IMG/VR virus record: IMGVR_UViG_3300028410_000001
Source: a virus
Length of the DNA: 40,229 bases
Strand: one strand, 5' to 3'
Shown one piece after another: positions 2,705 to 38,699 of the stretch. Within the stretch, counting starts at the first letter, position 1. Each line of letters starts with the position of its first letter. The notes below the pieces were generated by a model, which worked only from the letters and a program-made list of their open reading frames with translations, did not search any database and was not told the origin of the DNA. The translations under genes were made by a program, and so were the position numbers.

Positions 2705-3055
2705 ATGCTGGATCAAAAAGAACTGTACAACCACATGGAGGAACAGCACGGCCTGATCCTCGGCCAAGACGAAATGGATAGCATCATCCACCTCGTCATT
2801 CAGGGACTGAGGGAGGAACACCCTGAATACTTCCCCGCGCCATCGATCACGGAAAAACCTACCTCCTCAACAAGCCTCTTCGATGAGCTGGAGGTGGGGG
2901 ACTGGGTTAGAACCAGGCCCTATATCGGTGGCGACTGGAATCTGAGCAGAGTCTTGTTAAAATCTGATGACGACATTCTCTTGATATCCATGAGTGGCCA
3001 AGAAGAGATTAACAGAGAAGAGATCGACGAAGGCGACTATTTCCGATCCCTCTAA
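2705..3055 (+). CDS. Hypothetical acidic protein
   Basis: 116-aa ORF followed by a strong terminator hairpin. Confidence 0.55.
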   Translation: MLDQKELYNHMEEQHGLILGQDEMDSIIHLVIQGLREEHPEYFPAPSITEKPTSSTSLFDELEVGDWVRTRPYIGGDWNLSRVLLKSDDDILLISMSGQEEINREEIDEGDYFRSL

Positions 3056-3073
3056 ACCACCACCGCTCCCTAA

Positions 3074-3110
3074 GCCCTGCCAGCCACTCGCGCTGGCAGG
3101 GCTTCCTTTT
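3074..3110 (+). terminator. Rho-independent terminator
   Basis: 10-bp perfect stem gccctgccag / ctggcagggc, 9-nt loop, then ttcctttt. Confidence 0.7.
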
Positions 3111-3170
3111 CTGCATCAACGTCCTTCTACCGCCAGGCGCAGGGTGGCCACCTTGCAGAAAAATATAAAC

Positions 3171-3599
3171 GTGCGCAAAATCCTACTCCTGAACCTTTCC
3201 CGAATCTTCGATTCCCCTTTCTGGCAGGGTGCGCTTTCGATCATGACCGGGTGGGTGCTCTCATTCCTCGCTCCGCTCTGGCCGTTCCTGGTGTTGATGT
3301 TTGCGTTGGTGCTGGCGGACCTGTATTCTGGTGTGAAGGCAGCACGACGGCGCAAGGAAATAATTACGTCGAAGGGGTTTCGCAGAACTGTGGAAAAGAT
3401 CACGATGTACACCCTGGCCATCATGCTGGCGCATGGCATGAGCGTGGTCTTTCTCCCATCTTTCGATCTGGCTTGGCTGCCTGCTTTCGCCATTTGTGTG
3501 GCCGAGATCAAAAGTAACTTCGAGAACATCTACAGCATCACGGGCGTCGACGTGGGCGAAGAGGTGATGGAACTCCTGAAGAAAAAAATAAGGAAGTAA
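3171..3599 (+). CDS. Holin (phage_holin_4 / LL-H-like family)
   Basis: Multiple hydrophobic segments. LVLADLYSGVKAARRRKEIITSKGFRRTVEKITMYTLAIMLAH resembles the D-x-x-(S/T)-G ... S-K-G ... K signature of that family. Start is GTG 3171 or ATG 3243; the track start at 2994 crosses the terminator. Confidence 0.55.
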   Translation: MRKILLLNLSRIFDSPFWQGALSIMTGWVLSFLAPLWPFLVLMFALVLADLYSGVKAARRRKEIITSKGFRRTVEKITMYTLAIMLAHGMSVVFLPSFDLAWLPAFAICVAEIKSNFENIYSITGVDVGEEVMELLKKKIRK

Positions 3600-4198
3600 T
3601 GGATGCGCTGACCCAGTACATTACCACGACAGCAGAGACATGGACGATTGAGTTCGTCCAGGATAGCATCTCGAAGCTGCGCGCGCGAAAGTCAGAAGTG
3701 ACAGGCGATCTGGTGCGTAGCCTGATCGGTGCCGTACTGCCAGCAGCAGGGGAGGCTGCGGCAACCATCGCCATCCAGTTCGACAGCTCCGGCCGATTCA
3801 TCGACATGAGACGCATGAAACCGCCCGCTGGGGGACGCGAATACGTCGAGGAAATAATGATCTGGCTGGAGCGCAAGGGACTGGCAGAGAAGTTTATCCA
3901 GGGTTACCTGGAATCGAGGAAACTAATTAAGCGGCCAGAAGATGTTCTCCGCTACGTCGCTTTCGGCATCGTGAAGAAAAGGGCGAAAGGCAAGTACCGC
4001 CGAAAAGCGTGGTACAATAAATCGAAAGAGGCGCGCATTCGGGGCGTCGGTGGCCTGTACAATAGCATCGCGGCAAATATGCCCGACGAGGTGGCGCAGA
4101 TGTTGAGGGCTGGCCTAAGCACGGGGCTGGAAGATCGGGAATACAGTAGCAGCATCCGCGCCCTGCGTGGCTATGCGAAAGGGCGGGGGCGAACCTGA
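3599..4198 (+). CDS. Hypothetical virion-associated protein (possibly HK97 gp10-like tail/neck completion)
   Basis: 199-aa ORF coupled to the holin by a TAATG overlap and lying just upstream of the tape measure. The VTGDLVRSL stretch is reminiscent of gp10-family proteins; this is weak evidence. Confidence 0.5.
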   Translation: MDALTQYITTTAETWTIEFVQDSISKLRARKSEVTGDLVRSLIGAVLPAAGEAAATIAIQFDSSGRFIDMRRMKPPAGGREYVEEIMIWLERKGLAEKFIQGYLESRKLIKRPEDVLRYVAFGIVKKRAKGKYRRKAWYNKSKEARIRGVGGLYNSIAANMPDEVAQMLRAGLSTGLEDREYSSSIRALRGYAKGRGRT

Positions 4199-12843: not shown

Positions 12844-13605
12844 ATGAAACAGATTACACTGCCAGTTTCCGGCCTGACTTGGGCGGTCATGCGTCACCGA
12901 TATGGACCCGGCGTTATCCGCCTGCATCGAAATGATCTGCGCAGGCGAGAGCTGAGACACGTTGGCCCTACCGATATCCACCTTGAGCGGAAACAGTATG
13001 CCCTCACCCACGCCGTGACGATCGAAGTCAGTAGCCAGGAATACGACCACTTGGCAGGTCGCTTGCCTGAAGTAGGGTTCTATCTCTACGCCCAGGACAA
13101 AAACAGGATGTCGGCATTCGTCTGGTCGCAGGTCACGGCCGGGCTCCCTGCTCTCGCTGCGCTGAAAAACTATTACCTGCTACGCGGGATTACTGACGAC
13201 GAGCACGACATCGAGACCGCAGAACGACAATGGAAGCGGTGGCGAAAAGAATATGAAAAAGAACGGGTACCAAATACCCCGGATAATGTCCCCCGTTTGG
13301 TACCCGTTCTTTTGTCGGAGCGTCAAGCGGAAGTATTGGCTGCCAGGTTAGTCAGCCTAGCAAAGGTGGTTTGCACTGGAATGGACCCGCGATATCTTCA
13401 AGCTATCCCTATTTGGGTTTTTTGCGACTTCACGACGATGACACACCAAGAGGTTGCGAACAAGTTTAAAAGATGGCGACCCAAGGTAACAACAAGTGCA
13501 AGGCGATTCAGGGATTACCTTTCGCACCATTCTGAGCTTCGAATACTCGCCAGCTACTGCCTGAAGACGACGCTTGCCAAGCCAACGCCCTCGGCTGCGT
13601 CCTAA
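12844..13605 (+). CDS. Basic R/W-rich protein with an HTH-like C-terminal part; not obviously structural
   Basis: ATG 12844 (MKQITLPV...). LSERQAEVLAARLV ... MTHQEVANKFKRWRPKVTTSARRFRDYL loosely resembles sigma region-4 / LuxR-type HTH. Confidence 0.45.
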   Translation: MKQITLPVSGLTWAVMRHRYGPGVIRLHRNDLRRRELRHVGPTDIHLERKQYALTHAVTIEVSSQEYDHLAGRLPEVGFYLYAQDKNRMSAFVWSQVTAGLPALAALKNYYLLRGITDDEHDIETAERQWKRWRKEYEKERVPNTPDNVPRLVPVLLSERQAEVLAARLVSLAKVVCTGMDPRYLQAIPIWVFCDFTTMTHQEVANKFKRWRPKVTTSARRFRDYLSHHSELRILASYCLKTTLAKPTPSAAS

Positions 13606-21742: not shown

Positions 21743-22194
21743 TCACCACCCTATTGGCGAAGGCCCGCGCTCATTTCGGGCTCGCCCCCAACGCTTCTCT
21801 TTCTCAGCTCGACGCGGCGATTGACGCCGACACCCTCCCTGTAGTTCCCGCGACTGATGCAGATCAGGGCGCGGACGCAGGTGCAAAGAAGGTGGATGTG
21901 CCAGCCGCCGAAACCGCACCAGGAACCGCCCTTACCCGCGAAGATGTTGCCACCATGATTGCCACAGCCAGCGCAGAAATGTCGCAAGCCATTAGCGATC
22001 TCAACGCCGCCAACGCCGAGCTGACGCAGGCCAATACAGCACTATCTGACCGACTCAGCGCAGTCGAAGGCCAAGACGCTGCCAGCCACACGAGTGGGAA
22101 GACCGACGCCGTCGACCTGACCACGCCCTCGCCAATTTACGCGCAGAACCCCGCGAACCTTCGCGCCGCTGCGCGCCTGAAAGGTCTAGCCTAA
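21739..22194 (+). CDS. Probable scaffolding protein
   Basis: 151-aa Ala-rich helical ORF between the protease and the capsid gene. Confidence 0.45.
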   Translation: MITTLLAKARAHFGLAPNASLSQLDAAIDADTLPVVPATDADQGADAGAKKVDVPAAETAPGTALTREDVATMIATASAEMSQAISDLNAANAELTQANTALSDRLSAVEGQDAASHTSGKTDAVDLTTPSPIYAQNPANLRAAARLKGLA

Positions 22195-24235: not shown

Positions 24236-24471
24236 TGGCGAAGCAGAAAAAGACTCCGCTCTTGACACCTACGCAGCCTCTGGTTGCGTGGGTGTACACC
24301 GGGCCCGCCTACCCGCGCGTCAAGATTGATGGCGTTCCGACCTTCGTGCCGGACACCATCAGTCAGCAACGCATCGGGGAATTGATGGCCCGCCACCCGC
24401 ACGAACTGGCCGCTTATTTCGAGCGTGCCAGGCGCGTGAAGCCGGGTATCGATACCGCTGCTGGCGATTAA
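24236..24471 (+). CDS. Hypothetical small protein
   Basis: ATG 24236 (MAKQKKTPLL...) in frame inside track ORF 24085-24471, just after the stop codon that ends at 24229. Confidence 0.45.
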
Positions 24472-24495: not shown

Positions 24496-24530
24496 AGCCC
24501 CCGCCCTTGTGATGAGGTGCGGGGGCTTTT
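24496..24530 (+). terminator. Rho-independent terminator at the convergent junction with the minus-strand island
   Basis: 9-bp stem agcccccgc / gcgggggct followed by tttt. Confidence 0.7.
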
Positions 24531-24561
24531 GGGGTTTGGGGGGGGCGGGTAAAACGCCCGG

Positions 24562-24822
24562 TTAACCCGGGTTTCCATACATTTCCCGATCCAGTCGATC
24601 GCAAGGACGTAGCCAAGCGTGATCGGGGTTTGGGTAACCCATGGGGAGTACCAAATCGGCCACCCGGAAAAAGAACTCTTCCCCAGTCTCCTGAGGTCTC
24701 TGGAAATACAGCACATCGCTGTAATTTCCCTCGCCACGCTGGGCGATCATTTCTGGGCTGTAAGGCCCCCAGAGTTGGCCGCAGCCAACTCCGATGCAGT
24801 TATTGATTACTACGGTTTCCAT
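24562..24822 (-). CDS. Hypothetical accessory (moron) protein
   Basis: 86 aa from an internal ATG (METVVINNCIGVGCGQ...) of track ORF 24562-24873. It is antisense to the late operon, and its stop sits in the 14-bp palindrome cccggttaaccggg. Confidence 0.4.
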   Translation of the reverse strand: METVVINNCIGVGCGQLWGPYSPEMIAQRGEGNYSDVLYFQRPQETGEEFFFRVADLVLPMGYPNPDHAWLRPCDRLDREMYGNPG

Positions 24823-24926
24823 TTTGCTTGGATTTATGCAGGGTTGCAGCATTGCCGCCCTGCACCACCCCAACCCCGCCCCTACCGGTTAGGGCTGGAG
24901 CGGGGTGGGAAGGCGGGCGGGTGGGG

Positions 24927-25067
24927 CTAAAATCGGACTTCTATTTTCGCGCCCATTGCGGCCGCAATGGCCTCAAATTCTTCGGCCCTCGTCCGAAGCC
25001 TACCCTTGTCGCGGGTAGAATTGGTCGGCTGGCGACCAAGTGCCTCCCCGATCTTGCCGGGTGGCAC
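24927..25067 (-). CDS. HTH-like ORF fragment (XRE/HigA-like C-terminal helices)
   Basis: Minus-strand frame reads ...TTLTTWLDQ-VPPGKIGEALGRQPTNSTRDKGRLRTRAEEFEAIAAAMGAKIEVRF-stop. The only in-frame start is GTG 25067 (46 aa). The open frame extends upstream to a stop near 25155. Confidence 0.3.
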   Translation of the reverse strand: MPPGKIGEALGRQPTNSTRDKGRLRTRAEEFEAIAAAMGAKIEVRF

Positions 25068-25093
25068 CTGGTCGAGCCAGGTGGTCAGGGTGG

Positions 25094-25396
25094 TTACTTT
25101 CCCAGGCCGAAGGCCTTTACGGACGCCGAAATATGATGTGGGACTTCTCCCCCATCATACCCATCTAAGATGGATATGATGATCAATTTACACACCGATT
25201 GCGTGTGTTTTTTCGTAAAAGAGTCCGGGAATGGCCCGGATAGAGTGGGGTCAAACATTCTCGAGCCGTAGCCCATTCCGCGAGCGTAGGTAACCTTTAC
25301 CTTTAAGGCTACTGTACCAAACACGATTGTGTTTAGCTCTTCGCACGGCGCGAAGGGAGTGATTATTTTATTAAACAGAGTTTGAATTGGGTTCAT
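25094..25396 (-). CDS. Hypothetical accessory protein
   Basis: 100-aa ORF in an AT-richer segment, separated by 1 nt from the upstream 69-aa ORF. Confidence 0.45.
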   Translation of the reverse strand: MNPIQTLFNKIITPFAPCEELNTIVFGTVALKVKVTYARGMGYGSRMFDPTLSGPFPDSFTKKHTQSVCKLIIISILDGYDGGEVPHHISASVKAFGLGK

Positions 25397-25397
25397 T

Positions 25398-25607
25398 TTA
25401 GTACGCTTTTAGTATTTTGATTGTAATTTGGTTTCCTAGCTGACCGGTTGTCCTTAGGTGACCAACCCGGTCTTGGAAGTCCTCAAAGGACTCGAGGGTG
25501 TGGCTGCTAACTAGTGTAGGCCCCCAATGGGATGCCTCGTAGTTATTTACGAGGACTTCACCCTTTACGGAATTGTGAAAGTCGGGGTCTATGTCGAAGT
25601 AAGTCAT
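25398..25607 (-). CDS. Hypothetical accessory protein
   Basis: 69-aa acidic ORF, the first gene of the minus-strand island. Confidence 0.45.
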   Translation of the reverse strand: MTYFDIDPDFHNSVKGEVLVNNYEASHWGPTLVSSHTLESFEDFQDRVGHLRTTGQLGNQITIKILKAY

Positions 25608-25706
25608 TGTCTCGGAATTGTGTGTTTCTCGTCAGCGATATTGCTTTCGATACTACAAAGTATAGTCCATTCAGACTAACCGCGCAACTATTCAATACTT
25701 TATTTA

Positions 25707-25768
25707 CTCTTTTTGGAATAATAATTCCAAAAAAGAGAACGCCCACCGGCTGGGGAGCTGGTGGGCGC
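25707..25768. promoter_or_regulatory. Two adjacent hairpins/palindromes in the divergent control region of the island
   Basis: ctctttttggaat-aata-attccaaaaaagag (25707-25737) and cgcccacc...ggtgggcg (25741-25768). Confidence 0.45.
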
Positions 25769-25805
25769 GGGTAATGGTGAGCCATGTCGGGCTTTTTGCT
25801 TTTGC

Positions 25806-30241: not shown

Positions 30242-30424
30242 CTCGCTGAGTGGAATAGCCAGCGGTGGGAGCCGCTGGCATATAATACCGAATTTTGTGT
30301 TGCGTGGATCACGCAAACGCTAATCCGCGCCCTACGGGGGGGGAGAAGGTCAAGGCAAACAGAAGTTAATTTTGACCCCCAATTGGTTAAGAATCAGTAC
30401 CTTTAAAAATCAAAGTAATACAAT

Positions 30425-32055: not shown

Positions 32056-33108
32056 TTAAAAAGTGGGATAATCCTCCGCTAAAGAGCCCATGTCCTTCCA
32101 TCCAATGCGGCTCAAATAGATGCTGGTAGTCTCTAAATTAGCGTGCCTATTCTGCTTCTGAATGTAGAGCAAACTGACCTTCTTATCTGCTAGTAAATAG
32201 TTGGCGGTGTTCTTCCATCCATACAGCTTGAACTCTAATCCGAAACCCAAGTGATTAAGGTGTTCACGGTACCTCCCGGCCAGGGTGTTGACACCAATTG
32301 GCTTCTTCTTATCTCGTCCGGGGAAAAGGAAATCACCTGGCTGTTTTTGCGAGAGATACTCGGCCAGCTCCTCGCGAAAGGTGACAGGGATGACGACATA
32401 ATCATCCTCTCCATTCTTCGAGATGTGAGAGGGGACATGTACGCGCCATTCGTCGAGCTCGAAGTGCATCACCTTCATCAAGCGTAGTTCTGAGCCTGGC
32501 CGCAGTAGTAGGTAGAAAACACACTGGCAGGCAAAAAGCAATTCGGGGTCGTGCTCTGAAAGGTGTTGATAGATGGCTCGACGATGCGAGGTCTGATACC
32601 TGCGATTGGTGAGTGCCTTGTGCTTGAGGCGAGGGATGTGGCTGAAGAACTCATCGTCGGTGATGGCTGCAAAGATTTGCTTAAGGTATCGAAGGTAATC
32701 ATTACGCGTTCCTCTGGCGACGTGGTCTTCCAGGTGCTCGAAGTAATCAGTCACCAGGTCGGTACTCATCTCTCGTTTTCCTTTCCACTTCAGGAATAGG
32801 CGAAGTTTGGAGCAGTAGCACAGGTAGCTCTTTTTGCGCCACGTTTTTTTCTTCTGCGCGATCCAATCCCAAGCGCGAGCTTCGATAGGCTTCTTCGCCA
32901 CGTAAGTTTCGATGAAGGCCAGCATTGACCGCTCGGCGAGCTTCACCCTGCCTTCGTAGGTTTTGGGGTCGGATAGGCCAGTGTAGATACGCTGCCGCCT
33001 TCCTTCCTCATCGTAGTACTGGAGATAGGGCTTTAGGCCAAGGTTCCGGGAGACATGTATCTTAATACGCGATGGTCCGTTTGGGGCAAGTTTTTTTTCT
33101 GCTGACAT
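32056..33108 (-). CDS. int: Tyrosine recombinase / phage integrase
   Basis: 350 aa. Contains YLLLRPGSELRLMKV (box I Arg) and C-terminal RHANLETTSIYLSRI (His...Tyr catalytic motif). The N-terminal arm-binding-like segment is RIKIHVSRNLGLKPYLQYYDEEGRRQRIYTGL. Confidence 0.85.
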   Translation of the reverse strand: MSAEKKLAPNGPSRIKIHVSRNLGLKPYLQYYDEEGRRQRIYTGLSDPKTYEGRVKLAERSMLAFIETYVAKKPIEARAWDWIAQKKKTWRKKSYLCYCSKLRLFLKWKGKREMSTDLVTDYFEHLEDHVARGTRNDYLRYLKQIFAAITDDEFFSHIPRLKHKALTNRRYQTSHRRAIYQHLSEHDPELLFACQCVFYLLLRPGSELRLMKVMHFELDEWRVHVPSHISKNGEDDYVVIPVTFREELAEYLSQKQPGDFLFPGRDKKKPIGVNTLAGRYREHLNHLGFGLEFKLYGWKNTANYLLADKKVSLLYIQKQNRHANLETTSIYLSRIGWKDMGSLAEDYPTF

Positions 33109-37653: not shown

Positions 37654-38571
37654 ATGATTACAAGTACAAATATAGGTAGCAACGCCCGGATGATGGGCAT
37701 CGTGTTCAACGCCTTCATCATTTTGTCCATTCTAGTCAACGCTGCGCTGACCGCGCAGTTTGGATGGGAACACAGCGGGGGCGTGTTCGGCGCGCTCATC
37801 ATGCTCCTCTTTTTCGATGGTGCGGCCATCGCCTGGTACCTCGCCCGGAAAAAAGAAGGACTCAGCAGCATGCAGCGAGGAATCGCGAAGCTACTTTCAA
37901 TCGGCACGATTATCGCCAGTACGCTGGTGAGTGTCATCCAGGTACTGCTGAACACTACCCTGGTCGCGTTCAGCACGAACGCCCTGGAAACGATCGGGAA
38001 AGGTGGCCTGATCTTGGTCACCGTAGCGGCGGCTGCCAATTTCCTCGCCCTGTTTGCCTTCCAGTACTTCAGCATCGAAGAACAGAAAGCCGAGCAGCTC
38101 GAAGAACAGAAAGCCCGCGCCAACGACGAGCGTCAGGACATGATAAACGAGGCCCACACGAAGGCCCACACCAAGGCCCGGGCCCGCCTAATGATGCAGA
38201 CGGACGCAATCGCGGAGCGCATGGCCAACGATGCCGAACGCGAGTTCTACGCAGCAATGGACTGCCTGGACATGTACGAAGCACCAGCCGCGCGACCTAA
38301 TAAGGGCGCGGGCGCGGGTGCAAAGAAGAAGGGAAAGAAAGCAAAGAAGGCTACCCCTACCCCGCCCGTAAAAGCGGCAAACTCTGCCTGTGACTGTGGC
38401 ATGCCGATAGGAACATCCGAAGGAGAGTGTGATTATGAACTCGGCGGTAACGGCTGCATGATCGACCTCCGGGCCGAGCAAGAAAAAGCCGCCGCCCGCC
38501 CTATTGATTTCGAGAGTGAGCCGCTCGAACTCCCTGGCTTCGGTGCCGTAACCGACCCGCCGGGAAAGTAG
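37654..38571 (+). CDS. Membrane protein: about 4 TM segments, a coiled coil, a Lys-rich tract and a Cys cluster
   Basis: 305 aa with a hydrophobic N-terminal half. Followed by EEQKAEQLEEQKARANDERQ, then KKKGKKAKKATP, then CDCGMPIGTSEGECDYELGGNGC. Confidence 0.55.
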   Translation: MITSTNIGSNARMMGIVFNAFIILSILVNAALTAQFGWEHSGGVFGALIMLLFFDGAAIAWYLARKKEGLSSMQRGIAKLLSIGTIIASTLVSVIQVLLNTTLVAFSTNALETIGKGGLILVTVAAAANFLALFAFQYFSIEEQKAEQLEEQKARANDERQDMINEAHTKAHTKARARLMMQTDAIAERMANDAEREFYAAMDCLDMYEAPAARPNKGAGAGAKKKGKKAKKATPTPPVKAANSACDCGMPIGTSEGECDYELGGNGCMIDLRAEQEKAAARPIDFESEPLELPGFGAVTDPPGK

Positions 38572-38585
38572 CCAGCCAGGCTGGC

Positions 38586-38699
38586 GTGTGCGGGTATTGC
38601 GGCACCAATTTCCCCTACAGCAATGCCCGCCAACGCTACTGCCACGCCCACCGCCAAGCCAAGTACCGCGACCGCAAAAAGCTGGCAGTAAAAAGTTAA
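38586..38699 (+). CDS. Possible 37-aa zinc-ribbon mini-protein
   Basis: GTG start; (M)CGYCGTNFPYSNARQRYCHAHRQAKYRDRKKLAVKS has CxxC...CxH. It is below the 60-aa track cutoff. Confidence 0.3.
   Translation: MCGYCGTNFPYSNARQRYCHAHRQAKYRDRKKLAVKS

Follow-up and report, generated by a model that had tools for sequence, protein, structure and literature searches.

A mosaic accessory operon in a metagenomic phage, with a conserved module predicted to be joined to exchangeable genes by −1 frameshifting

The viral contig IMGVR_UViG_3300028410_000001 (ENA ERZ27315555 k141_325664), a metagenomic phage contig that we analysed over its full length of 40,229 nucleotides and refer to as the window, carries four small open reading frames (ORFs) on the minus strand between positions 24562 and 25607, here called A, B, C, and D. 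Alignments to related contigs indicate that this segment is almost certainly an accessory mosaic operon, which occupies a hotspot for insertions flanked by the terminator of the head genes and by the portal/terminase operon. We further suggest that C is probably produced as a C-terminal extension of the gene in the first slot of the operon by −1 frameshifting, which in the window would yield a B-C protein of 156 amino acids beside the B protein of 100 amino acids. For the cassette as a whole, we lean slightly towards a moron-type accessory operon with swappable slots and a constant C module delivered by programmed frameshifting, which may serve in counter-defence.

The comparison was based on about ten related contigs, retrieved via the portal-like protein and via C. 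In the distant relative L009, the portal-like protein of which is 47% identical to that of the window, homologues of the 78-amino-acid and 119-amino-acid genes were located about 100 nt apart with nothing between them. L012 contained a different insert of 0.9 kb at the site of the cassette, and L006 contained an extra plus-strand ORF of 195 amino acids (804-1391) at the hotspot, between the cassette promoter and the 119-amino-acid gene. The N-terminus of the 195-amino-acid protein is hydrophobic, cysteine-containing, and lipoprotein-like (MRTIILLLFLGQFAC...), and the protein has no family match. A preliminary description of the window had proposed that the segment is an antisense, compositionally distinct accessory insertion of the moron type, and the absence of the cassette from L009, the other inserts in L012 and L006, and the reshuffling of its slots bear this out.

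Among contigs with flanking sequences 96% to 97% identical to those of the window, the slots were reshuffled into six combinations, and the contents of five contigs are given here, all of which contained C as the constant element. The window contained A and B in slot 1 and D in slot 3. L008 contained A and B in slot 1 and a gene for a DUF1874 protein in slot 3, and the DUF1874 gene was also found in slot 3 of L004, where slot 1 was occupied by an ORF of 73 amino acids, here called U, which is unrelated to A and B. L013 contained U in slot 1 and a 92-amino-acid ORFan in slot 3, while L015 contained U' in slot 1 and nothing in slot 3. Homology between B and U was considered and rejected, as BLASTP gave no alignment. 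The breakpoints in homology fell at functional borders, namely a shared ATG (25599-25607), position 25104 at the heptamer described below, position 24857, and the terminator at about 24530. Three elements of the cassette stayed constant, namely the promoter and 5' untranslated region (UTR) at 25608-25726, C, and a structured spacer of about 70 nt after C. The mosaic architecture was demonstrated by these nucleotide alignments.

All four minus-strand frames of the preliminary description were recovered, including their positions, the 1-nt distance between A and B, and the lack of an ATG in C. A (25398-25607; slot 1a) encodes 69 amino acids with an isoelectric point (pI) of 5.3. B (25094-25396; slot 1b) starts 1 nt after A, encodes 100 amino acids with a pI of 9.0, and ends with ...G-L-G-K-TAA. 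Frame C is open from 25151 to a TAG stop codon at 24929-24927, and its first GTG is located at 25067. D (24562-24822; slot 3) encodes 86 amino acids from an ATG, or 103 amino acids from a TTG at 24873, with a pI of 4.45; the ATG is the more likely start because the TTG falls inside the constant spacer. In total, A, D, U, and the 92-amino-acid ORF are acidic, with pI values of 4.5 to 5.3, and B and C are basic, with pI values of 9.0 and about 9.7. The grand average of hydropathy was negative for all cassette products except B (+0.14), and the products are of a soluble type by composition.

Credible reading frames between 24471 and 25909 were found on the minus strand only, and the minus-strand frame ranked first out of six for A, B, C, and D with codon usage trained on the long genes of the phage. 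Public gene callers disagree in this region, one calling a plus-strand ORF at 24619-24930 and another calling D. The plus-strand ORF (103 amino acids), which is the gene call in the ENA-derived record, is antisense to D and crosses the conserved spacer between C and D. It is modestly outscored by the minus frame of D on codon usage, and is probably a mis-call. The higher AT content ascribed to the segment was found in part of it: the GC content was 0.46 to 0.47 at 25200-25800, which covers A, B, and the upstream region, compared with 0.55 to 0.60 in the flanks, whereas C and D are not AT-rich. The A variant in L008 and L006 contained an in-frame insertion of 12 nt. B was intact in four contigs, with differences that were mostly non-synonymous. 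In a search of 5.8 billion proteins, the only homologues of B were copies of 95% to 97% identity, the sole match to D was D itself, called as a protein of 86 amino acids, and C retrieved only near-identical copies or members of its family.

The evidence for frameshifting lies in the junction between B and C. The −1 slippery heptamer G GGA AAG is located at 25103 to 25097 on the minus strand, in phase with B (CTG GGA AAG TAA), and is directly followed by the TAA stop codon of B (25096-25094). The −1 frame reads GGG AAA GTA ACC..., corresponding to GKVTTLTTWLDQ..., and its start coincides with the onset of homology between the window and its relatives. Module C (24927-25103) would thus be a −1 extension of 58 codons, GKVTTLTTWLDQVPPGK...AKIEVRF, that ends at the TAG stop codon, and the predicted 156-amino-acid fusion has the junction peptide ...AFGLGKVTTLTTWLDQVPPGK. 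A fusion of B to C had been anticipated, by an extra G in a run of five G residues at 25149-25153 or by a −1 slip. The −1 relationship and the slip were retained, with the slip placed at GGGAAAG at 25097-25103. The G run was rejected as the site of the fusion, as it was intact in four independent contigs, in which the C-terminus and the stop codon of B were conserved.

A 17-nt sequence at the junction, GGGAAAGTAACCACCCT, was invariant in all five contigs that had been retrieved through protein similarity. When this 17-mer was used as a probe, 2 more contigs were identified, L025 and L055, with C-like extensions behind unrelated ORFs. L025 contained an ORF of 147 amino acids ending with ...NTGK*, followed by an extension with 43% identity to C over 58 residues. 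L055 contained an acidic ORF of 85 amino acids ending with ...RLGK*, followed by the extension GKVTTLTAWLTD..., which was cut by the end of the contig. The heptamer and stop codon were thus invariant behind four unrelated upstream ORFs, namely B, U, the 147-amino-acid ORF, and the 85-amino-acid ORF, which establishes the conservation of the slip signal at the nucleotide level. The codon before GGA AAG was CTG, GTG, or ACG, encoding Leu, Val, or Thr, and was CCG at a second site in the window (see below). Its third base was always G, and we therefore infer that selection has acted on the nucleotide heptamer. L025 corresponds to IMGVR_UViG_2830033918_000001, an unrelated viral contig in which the locus is located at 2943-4163 on the minus strand. 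The C-like extension in L025 is followed by an ORF of 207 amino acids with weak P-loop/zeta-toxin-like matches (E of about 1e-3), and searches of the neighbourhood against PHROGs and Pfam were uninformative.

GGGAAAG followed by TAA or TAG was found in only two places in the window, in both cases in phase, covering the final two sense codons of a long ORF beyond which a −1 frame was open for at least 45 codons. Only six copies of GGGAAAG shared the phase of a long ORF, and in two of these cases the copy was placed on the last two sense codons, whereas about 0.03 such cases would be expected by chance according to our own arithmetic from the ORF lengths. The second site (38562-38699, plus strand) reads CCG GGA AAG TAG and ends a membrane-type ORF of 305 amino acids (37654-38571) that comes after a gene for a DUF3987 primase. 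The −1 frame at this site adds 45 residues with a zinc-ribbon-like CxxC...YC..H motif, although the match of the extension to Pfam Zn_ribbon_3 was weak (E=0.06). In L023, in which the protein is 68% identical, the heptamer, the stop codon, and a CxxC...YCS extension were kept, with in-frame indels. The second site supports the suggestion that this phage lineage uses G GGA AAG plus a stop codon as a signal. The same heptamer is the slippery site of the lambda G/GT genes, where a downstream structure is not obligatory. In Escherichia coli, G_GGA_AAG has been described as highly shift-prone (PMC5009743).

C had been described as a remnant. However, the window and L004 differed at 10 positions in C, 9 of which were third codon positions, corresponding to 9 synonymous changes and 1 non-synonymous change, and C is therefore not a remnant but a sequence for which the codon comparison demonstrates selection. 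It is also the only constant coding part of the cassette. C stayed open in four independent contigs of the B type, and was retained, with the same promoter, in the satellite-like element L014. Peptide-pattern scans for relatives of C in metagenome and genome collections gave nothing. It was also noted that the 18-bp palindrome at 24953-24970 within C, reported previously, is exact but not conserved in the relatives. This palindrome, which contains a NotI site, was rejected as an operator on this ground; its sequence simply follows from the codons that specify AIAAAMG.

According to an alternative explanation, there is no frameshifting, and C is translated from the GTG at 25067 as a protein of 46 amino acids or by reinitiation after the stop codon of B, or else is, in the lineage of the window, a decaying leftover that lost its 5' end upon replacement of U by A and B. 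The window, L008, L006, and L055 contained no ATG for C. In L004, L013, and L014, an in-frame ATG located 52 nt inside U gives C an ORF of 72 to 73 amino acids that gene callers report as a gene, L025 contained an internal ATG, and the GTG at 25067, which belongs to a VPPGK motif, was kept in six close relatives; these starts, together with the two non-synonymous changes in C of L008, would favour this alternative. Yet the GTG is replaced by ATA in L025 and by CTT in L055, and the stretch that encodes the residues before it, KVTTLTTWLDQ, is conserved and differs between the window and L004 at synonymous positions only. The ATG of the U-type contigs is part of GGA-TGG, which encodes Gly-Trp in U, and the 15 N-terminal residues of the ATG-started ORF are unconstrained: in the overlap of U and C in L004 and L014, the frame of U is conserved, with one substitution and one codon indel, whereas the peptide in the frame of C is scrambled (MVGWPCRGQYFPSGG versus MVRWTSGGKQFPPGGG). 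In L015, the ATG in the frame of C is followed by a TGA two codons later, with U, the junction, and C all intact. The members with C do not share a start codon, whereas the heptamer and stop codon are invariant, and a decaying leftover is contradicted by the 9:1 ratio of synonymous to non-synonymous changes and by the four B-type contigs with an open C. We consider an explanation of C without frameshifting to be unlikely.

The borders of the cassette were also as anticipated. The GC-rich hairpin at 24496-24530 folds as described, with an energy of −25.9 kcal/mol followed by UUUUGGGGUUUGG, and has a U-run on the plus strand; on the minus strand its z-score was −4.4 but there was no U-run. This hairpin terminates the operon of the head genes, with the cassette running towards it from the opposite direction. 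The homology common to all relatives stops at 24530-24537. On the other side, the hairpins and motif copies proved to be real, and consist of a palindrome at 25710-25733, a hairpin at 25740-25767, and the repeated CGTCCGCGCC. The palindrome at 25710-25733 was rejected as an operator, since it is lost in L008 and L014. A minus-strand hairpin at 25727-25768 with UUCUCUUUUUU (−22.3 kcal/mol; z=−4.2), located just upstream of the cassette promoter, resembles an intrinsic terminator. L004 and L013 retain it, whereas other sequence takes its place in L008 and L014. It may act as an insulator. At least six copies of the motif (G/A)CGTCCGCGCC(C) were identified in the genome, at 25823, 25848, 14733, and 34771 on the plus strand and at 21878 and 17901 on the minus strand. 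Two of these (25823 and 25848) are located 25 nt apart, just upstream of the operon for the 119-amino-acid protein and the portal protein, and an 18-nt version of the motif, TGCACCTGCGTCCGCGCC, is repeated in inverted orientation at 21868-21885.

The minus-strand module at 25608-25726, which ends at the shared ATGA of the first gene, is the putative promoter and 5'UTR of the cassette. It was nearly invariant in the five-contig alignment, and its identity to L014 was 92% versus 78% for the coding module C. A candidate for a −7 box of the Bacteroidota type, TATACTTTG, is located at 25664 to 25656, with one extra base compared with TAnnTTTG. The box is exact in L014 (TATCTTTG), and L055 contained TATATTTG, also exact, in the same place. 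An invariant stretch of this module includes the imperfect palindrome AGCAATATCGCT (25634-25645). A sigma-70 scan of the promoter region gave nothing. The constant spacer after C (24857-24926, minus strand) is GC-rich, with a fold energy of −52.4 kcal/mol (z=−2.9), and forms a long imperfect hairpin and, together with 24823-24856, a second hairpin, with no U-tract. The spacer is common to L004, L008, and L013, whereas L014 contains roughly the first 30 nt of it. An attenuator or an RNA-stabilising element are both possibilities for its role.

To assign functions to the products, A, B, C, D, the fusions, and the proteins of the relatives were searched against Pfam, PHROGs, PADLOC, and NCBIfam, and nothing significant was identified except for DUF1874 in the relatives. 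The PADLOC search gave a marginal match for A only (E=0.026) and none for B, B-C, D, U-C, or the 92-amino-acid ORF. An exhaustive HMMER search of A against 1.84 billion proteins gave weak matches to repetitive proteins, which are not credible because the best one, P0007, gave an E-value of 9.8 with BLASTP. A, B, D, U, and the 92-amino-acid ORF are thus ORFans. The slot-3 protein of L004 and L008 is the only recognisable gene product of the cassette. It matched PF08960 (STIV_B116-like) with an E-value of 1.4e-24, as well as AFV3-109 (2e-15), STIV B116, and SIRV1 ORF114 in the Protein Data Bank (PDB; 2j6b, 2j85, 2x4i), with the GH motif aligned. DUF1874 proteins are AcrIII-1 viral ring nucleases that degrade cA4, and their active-site histidine is absolutely conserved (10.1101/778746). 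D shows no similarity to the DUF1874 slot-3 protein.

C had also been labelled as a helix-turn-helix (HTH) frame. An AlphaFold2 model of C, with a mean predicted local distance difference test score (pLDDT) of 81.8, contained a beta strand, two short helices, one long helix, and a further beta strand. Foldseek searches of this model against PDB and BFVD gave nothing below E=0.8, and sequence and profile searches of C against PDB gave no match. An XRE-type HTH was rejected on an hhalign probability of 0.9%, and no match was obtained to HTH_17, excisionases, or other DNA-binding families in Pfam, NCBIfam, and PDB profiles. The HTH label is unsupported because C has no structural neighbour, no match in PDB, and no similarity to an XRE HTH, although the fold could bind nucleic acid. 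The model of B-C, with a pLDDT of 42 and values below 50 for the B part, was too poor to be searched.

A function in defence, exclusion, or toxin-antitoxin activity had been put forward for the cassette. In this explanation, the operon is a prophage-expressed system that protects the lysogen, with C as an HTH regulator or an antitoxin. The integrase gene in the window (32056-33108, minus strand) makes lysogeny plausible, and the moron architecture, with its own promoter region, convergent termination, and atypical GC content, would fit, as would the tight coupling of A and B and, in our own reading of the sequence, the signal- or lipoprotein-like N-terminus of the 195-amino-acid ORF in L006, which is of a type common in exclusion. 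However, the database searches described above gave no significant defence match for the products or their fusions and revealed neither a toxin nor an antitoxin family, the products are non-hydrophobic and of the soluble type, and the cassette is also present on a small satellite-like element. Moreover, counter-defence is preferred over defence because the sole recognisable slot occupant, in L004 and L008, belongs to the DUF1874/AcrIII-1 family of anti-CRISPR proteins. A system protecting the lysogen is therefore hardly probable. By analogy, the layout, with two independently assorting ORFan slots, a constant small basic module, and an occupant from an anti-CRISPR family, resembles anti-CRISPR or anti-defence operons more closely than defence systems, and we tentatively consider a counter-defence role as a distinct possibility that falls somewhat short of even.

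The satellite-like element L014 (jgi 3300037300 Ga0400271_001311) is a 9,459-bp element that was assembled as a concatemer. It encodes an integrase, ribbon-helix-helix (RHH) and HTH_17 proteins, a DUF3987 primase, an S49 protease, and a homologue of the 126-amino-acid protein encoded in the head region of the window, and it has four short non-coding or regulatory segments in common with the window. L014 looks like a satellite of this phage family. The promoter-U-C segment in L014 is located directly upstream of the integrase gene and in the same orientation, and C is small and basic like excisionases and is, together with the promoter, a constant part of the cassette. These features would fit an explanation in which C, alone or as U-C or B-C, is a core regulator of lysogeny or excision, such as a recombination directionality factor, with the variable genes as hitchhiking morons. 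We regard this as improbable, given that in the window 7 kb, including the packaging operon, separate the cassette from the integrase gene and that no excisionase or DNA-binding family was matched by C. Furthermore, relatives of the L009 type are empty at the site, although these contigs are too short to show whether C is located elsewhere.

Two of the sequences that L014 shares with the window are notable as elements in their own right. A hairpin element of about 65 nt with the conserved loop ACCCCGSATWATGTCCCCCGTTTG is present once in the window (13248-13316) and four times in tandem in L014 (8904-9170). The stems vary between copies yet stay complementary through compensatory changes, and an origin, an iteron, a packaging signal, or an RNA are possibilities for its nature. 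An intergenic element of about 100 nt is located just after the large terminase gene in the window (30278-30374) and, inverted, at 2319-2415 in L014, with 78% identity and the invariant sequence CTAATCCGCGCCCTACGGGGGGGG. It is a candidate for a packaging or regulatory site.

We propose the following explanation for the cassette. On the minus strand, the constant promoter and 5'UTR would be followed by the swappable slot 1, the basic C module of 58 residues, the structured spacer, and the swappable slot 3. A fraction of the ribosomes that finish the slot-1 gene would slip by −1 on G GGA AAG just before the stop codon and thereby make C, so that the operon in the window would give B and, as a minor product, the B-C fusion, in the same manner as lambda makes G and GT. 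The rapidly exchanged, small, and mostly acidic ORFans would most likely be counter-defence or host-takeover proteins. C would serve as a shared functional handle, and our first guess is an Aca-like autoregulatory module that binds nucleic acid, such that the frameshift would tie the dosage of C to the output of the effector. A second guess is a targeting tag that, for example, loads cargo into capsids. In a more speculative extension, which we find doubtful but worth stating, the constant promoter, the G GGA AAG TAA junction, and C would together constitute a portable "frameshift tag", so that any gene placed in slot 1 would yield a fixed minor fraction that bears C.

Several observations count against this explanation. 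The frameshifting itself is deduced solely from nucleotide sequences. The in-frame ATG for C in L004, L013, and L014 and the internal ATG in L025 make independent initiation of C possible in some members. The invariance of the junction in L025 and L055 is subject to ascertainment bias because both contigs were found with the exact 17-mer. In C, the window and L008, which belongs to the B lineage, differ by 2 synonymous and 2 non-synonymous codons, which is a weak signal of selection. A hairpin after the heptamer (−40 kcal/mol; z=−3.8) was rejected as a conserved stimulator and is not counted as evidence, because its start is 17 nt beyond the heptamer, compared with the 5 to 9 nt expected of a stimulatory structure, and because L014 keeps only part of it, so that it is not conserved. 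With regard to function, C has no detectable DNA-binding fold, and the window contains no recognisable anti-defence gene, which makes the link to AcrIII-1 one of guilt by position. PADLOC labels the DUF1874 protein of L004 and L008 as Csx16, and relatives of DUF1874 also occur in the CRISPR loci of hosts.

The genes that precede the cassette in the window are encoded on the plus strand, in the order tape measure and collagen-like tail fibres, amidase endolysin, S49 prohead protease, and a 320-amino-acid protein. We take the latter to be the major capsid protein from its position, the family matches to capsid proteins being only weak. It is followed by three small head-region genes on the plus strand, the last of which ends at 24471. 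Downstream of the region, the plus-strand order is a 119-amino-acid gene, a 456-amino-acid gene, two small genes, the large terminase gene, and a gene for a DUF6712 protein. The 456-amino-acid protein is read as the portal protein from its position and size, its sole match being a PHROG of unknown function. The order of modules is unusual, with tail, lysis, protease and capsid, the island, and portal and large terminase along positions 1 to 31500, and the contig is possibly a circularly permuted version of the genome. A Pfam holin_4_1 match was found at 2994-3599, upstream of the tape-measure gene. The TAnnTTTG-type box fits a host from the Bacteroidota, and the nearest relatives of the terminase among isolate phages point in the same direction. 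A portal-based search for prophages in genomes of the Genome Taxonomy Database (GTDB) identified none. No match was obtained for the region in a megablast search against phages, or for any of the cassette proteins in a tblastn search against isolate phages, and scans of the window for Rfam families and transfer RNAs gave nothing.

If confirmed, the recoding proposed here, the signal for which is present at two sites of a single genome, would widen the range of places where annotators look for such events; at present, gene callers break up or wrongly annotate genes joined in this manner. It would also point to an easy route by which phages could connect newly acquired genes to a regulatory or targeting module that is already in place. 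A portable tag, if true, could couple autoregulation to effector output or route part of a diverse set of cargo proteins to one shared destination, such as the procapsid or the ejected DNA, and would represent one device that is reused by a phage lineage, its satellite, and unrelated viral contigs. It would be a modular form of programmed frameshifting in phage accessory genes, suited to recombination and outside the tail-chaperone paradigm. In addition, the cassette provides a positional handle for new counter-defence candidates, namely A, B, D, U, the 92-amino-acid ORF, and the partners of C in L025 and L055, in poorly studied phages, which probably infect Bacteroidota, and in their satellites.

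Both the architecture and the putative recoding signal are well supported by comparisons among contigs. The cassette can be compared with several known systems. With phage morons of the lambdoid and HK97-like types it shares the insertion between genes that are adjacent in L009, a promoter-like region with bounding hairpins, and an atypical composition. It differs from them in its multi-slot organisation, in which two variable slots assort independently around a constant core, and in being shared with a satellite-like element. With acr-aca operons it has in common a fixed hotspot, a conserved promoter, and rapidly exchanged small and mostly acidic ORFans with one constant small partner, and its relatives L004 and L008 carry a gene of the AcrIII-1/DUF1874 family in the operon. 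However, the constant partner C has no detectable HTH and is apparently not translated on its own but fused to the upstream product by frameshifting. A conserved inverted-repeat operator was not identified, the palindrome at 25710-25733 being lost in L008 and L014, and nothing in the window matches a known Acr. The similarity to the AcrIII-1/STIV B116/DUF1874 ring nucleases is confined to the slot-3 protein of L004 and L008, whereas in the window this gene is absent and slot 3 holds D instead.

No description of accessory cassettes coupled by frameshifting was found in the literature searched, and nearly all annotated programmed frameshifts in phages are those of tail chaperones (2397 of 2476 in SEA-PHAGES; PMC10885494). 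Like the lambda G/GT genes, the cassette would give two products with a common N-terminus from one mRNA, the longer of which is presumably minor, and no conserved stimulatory structure is evident. The heptamer is identical in the two systems. In contrast to lambda G/GT, the cassette does not precede the tape-measure gene, shares no homology with tail chaperones, and occupies an antisense accessory location. Furthermore, the stop codon abuts the heptamer in the cassette, and it is the extension that is conserved, whereas the ORFs upstream of it are interchangeable and unrelated.

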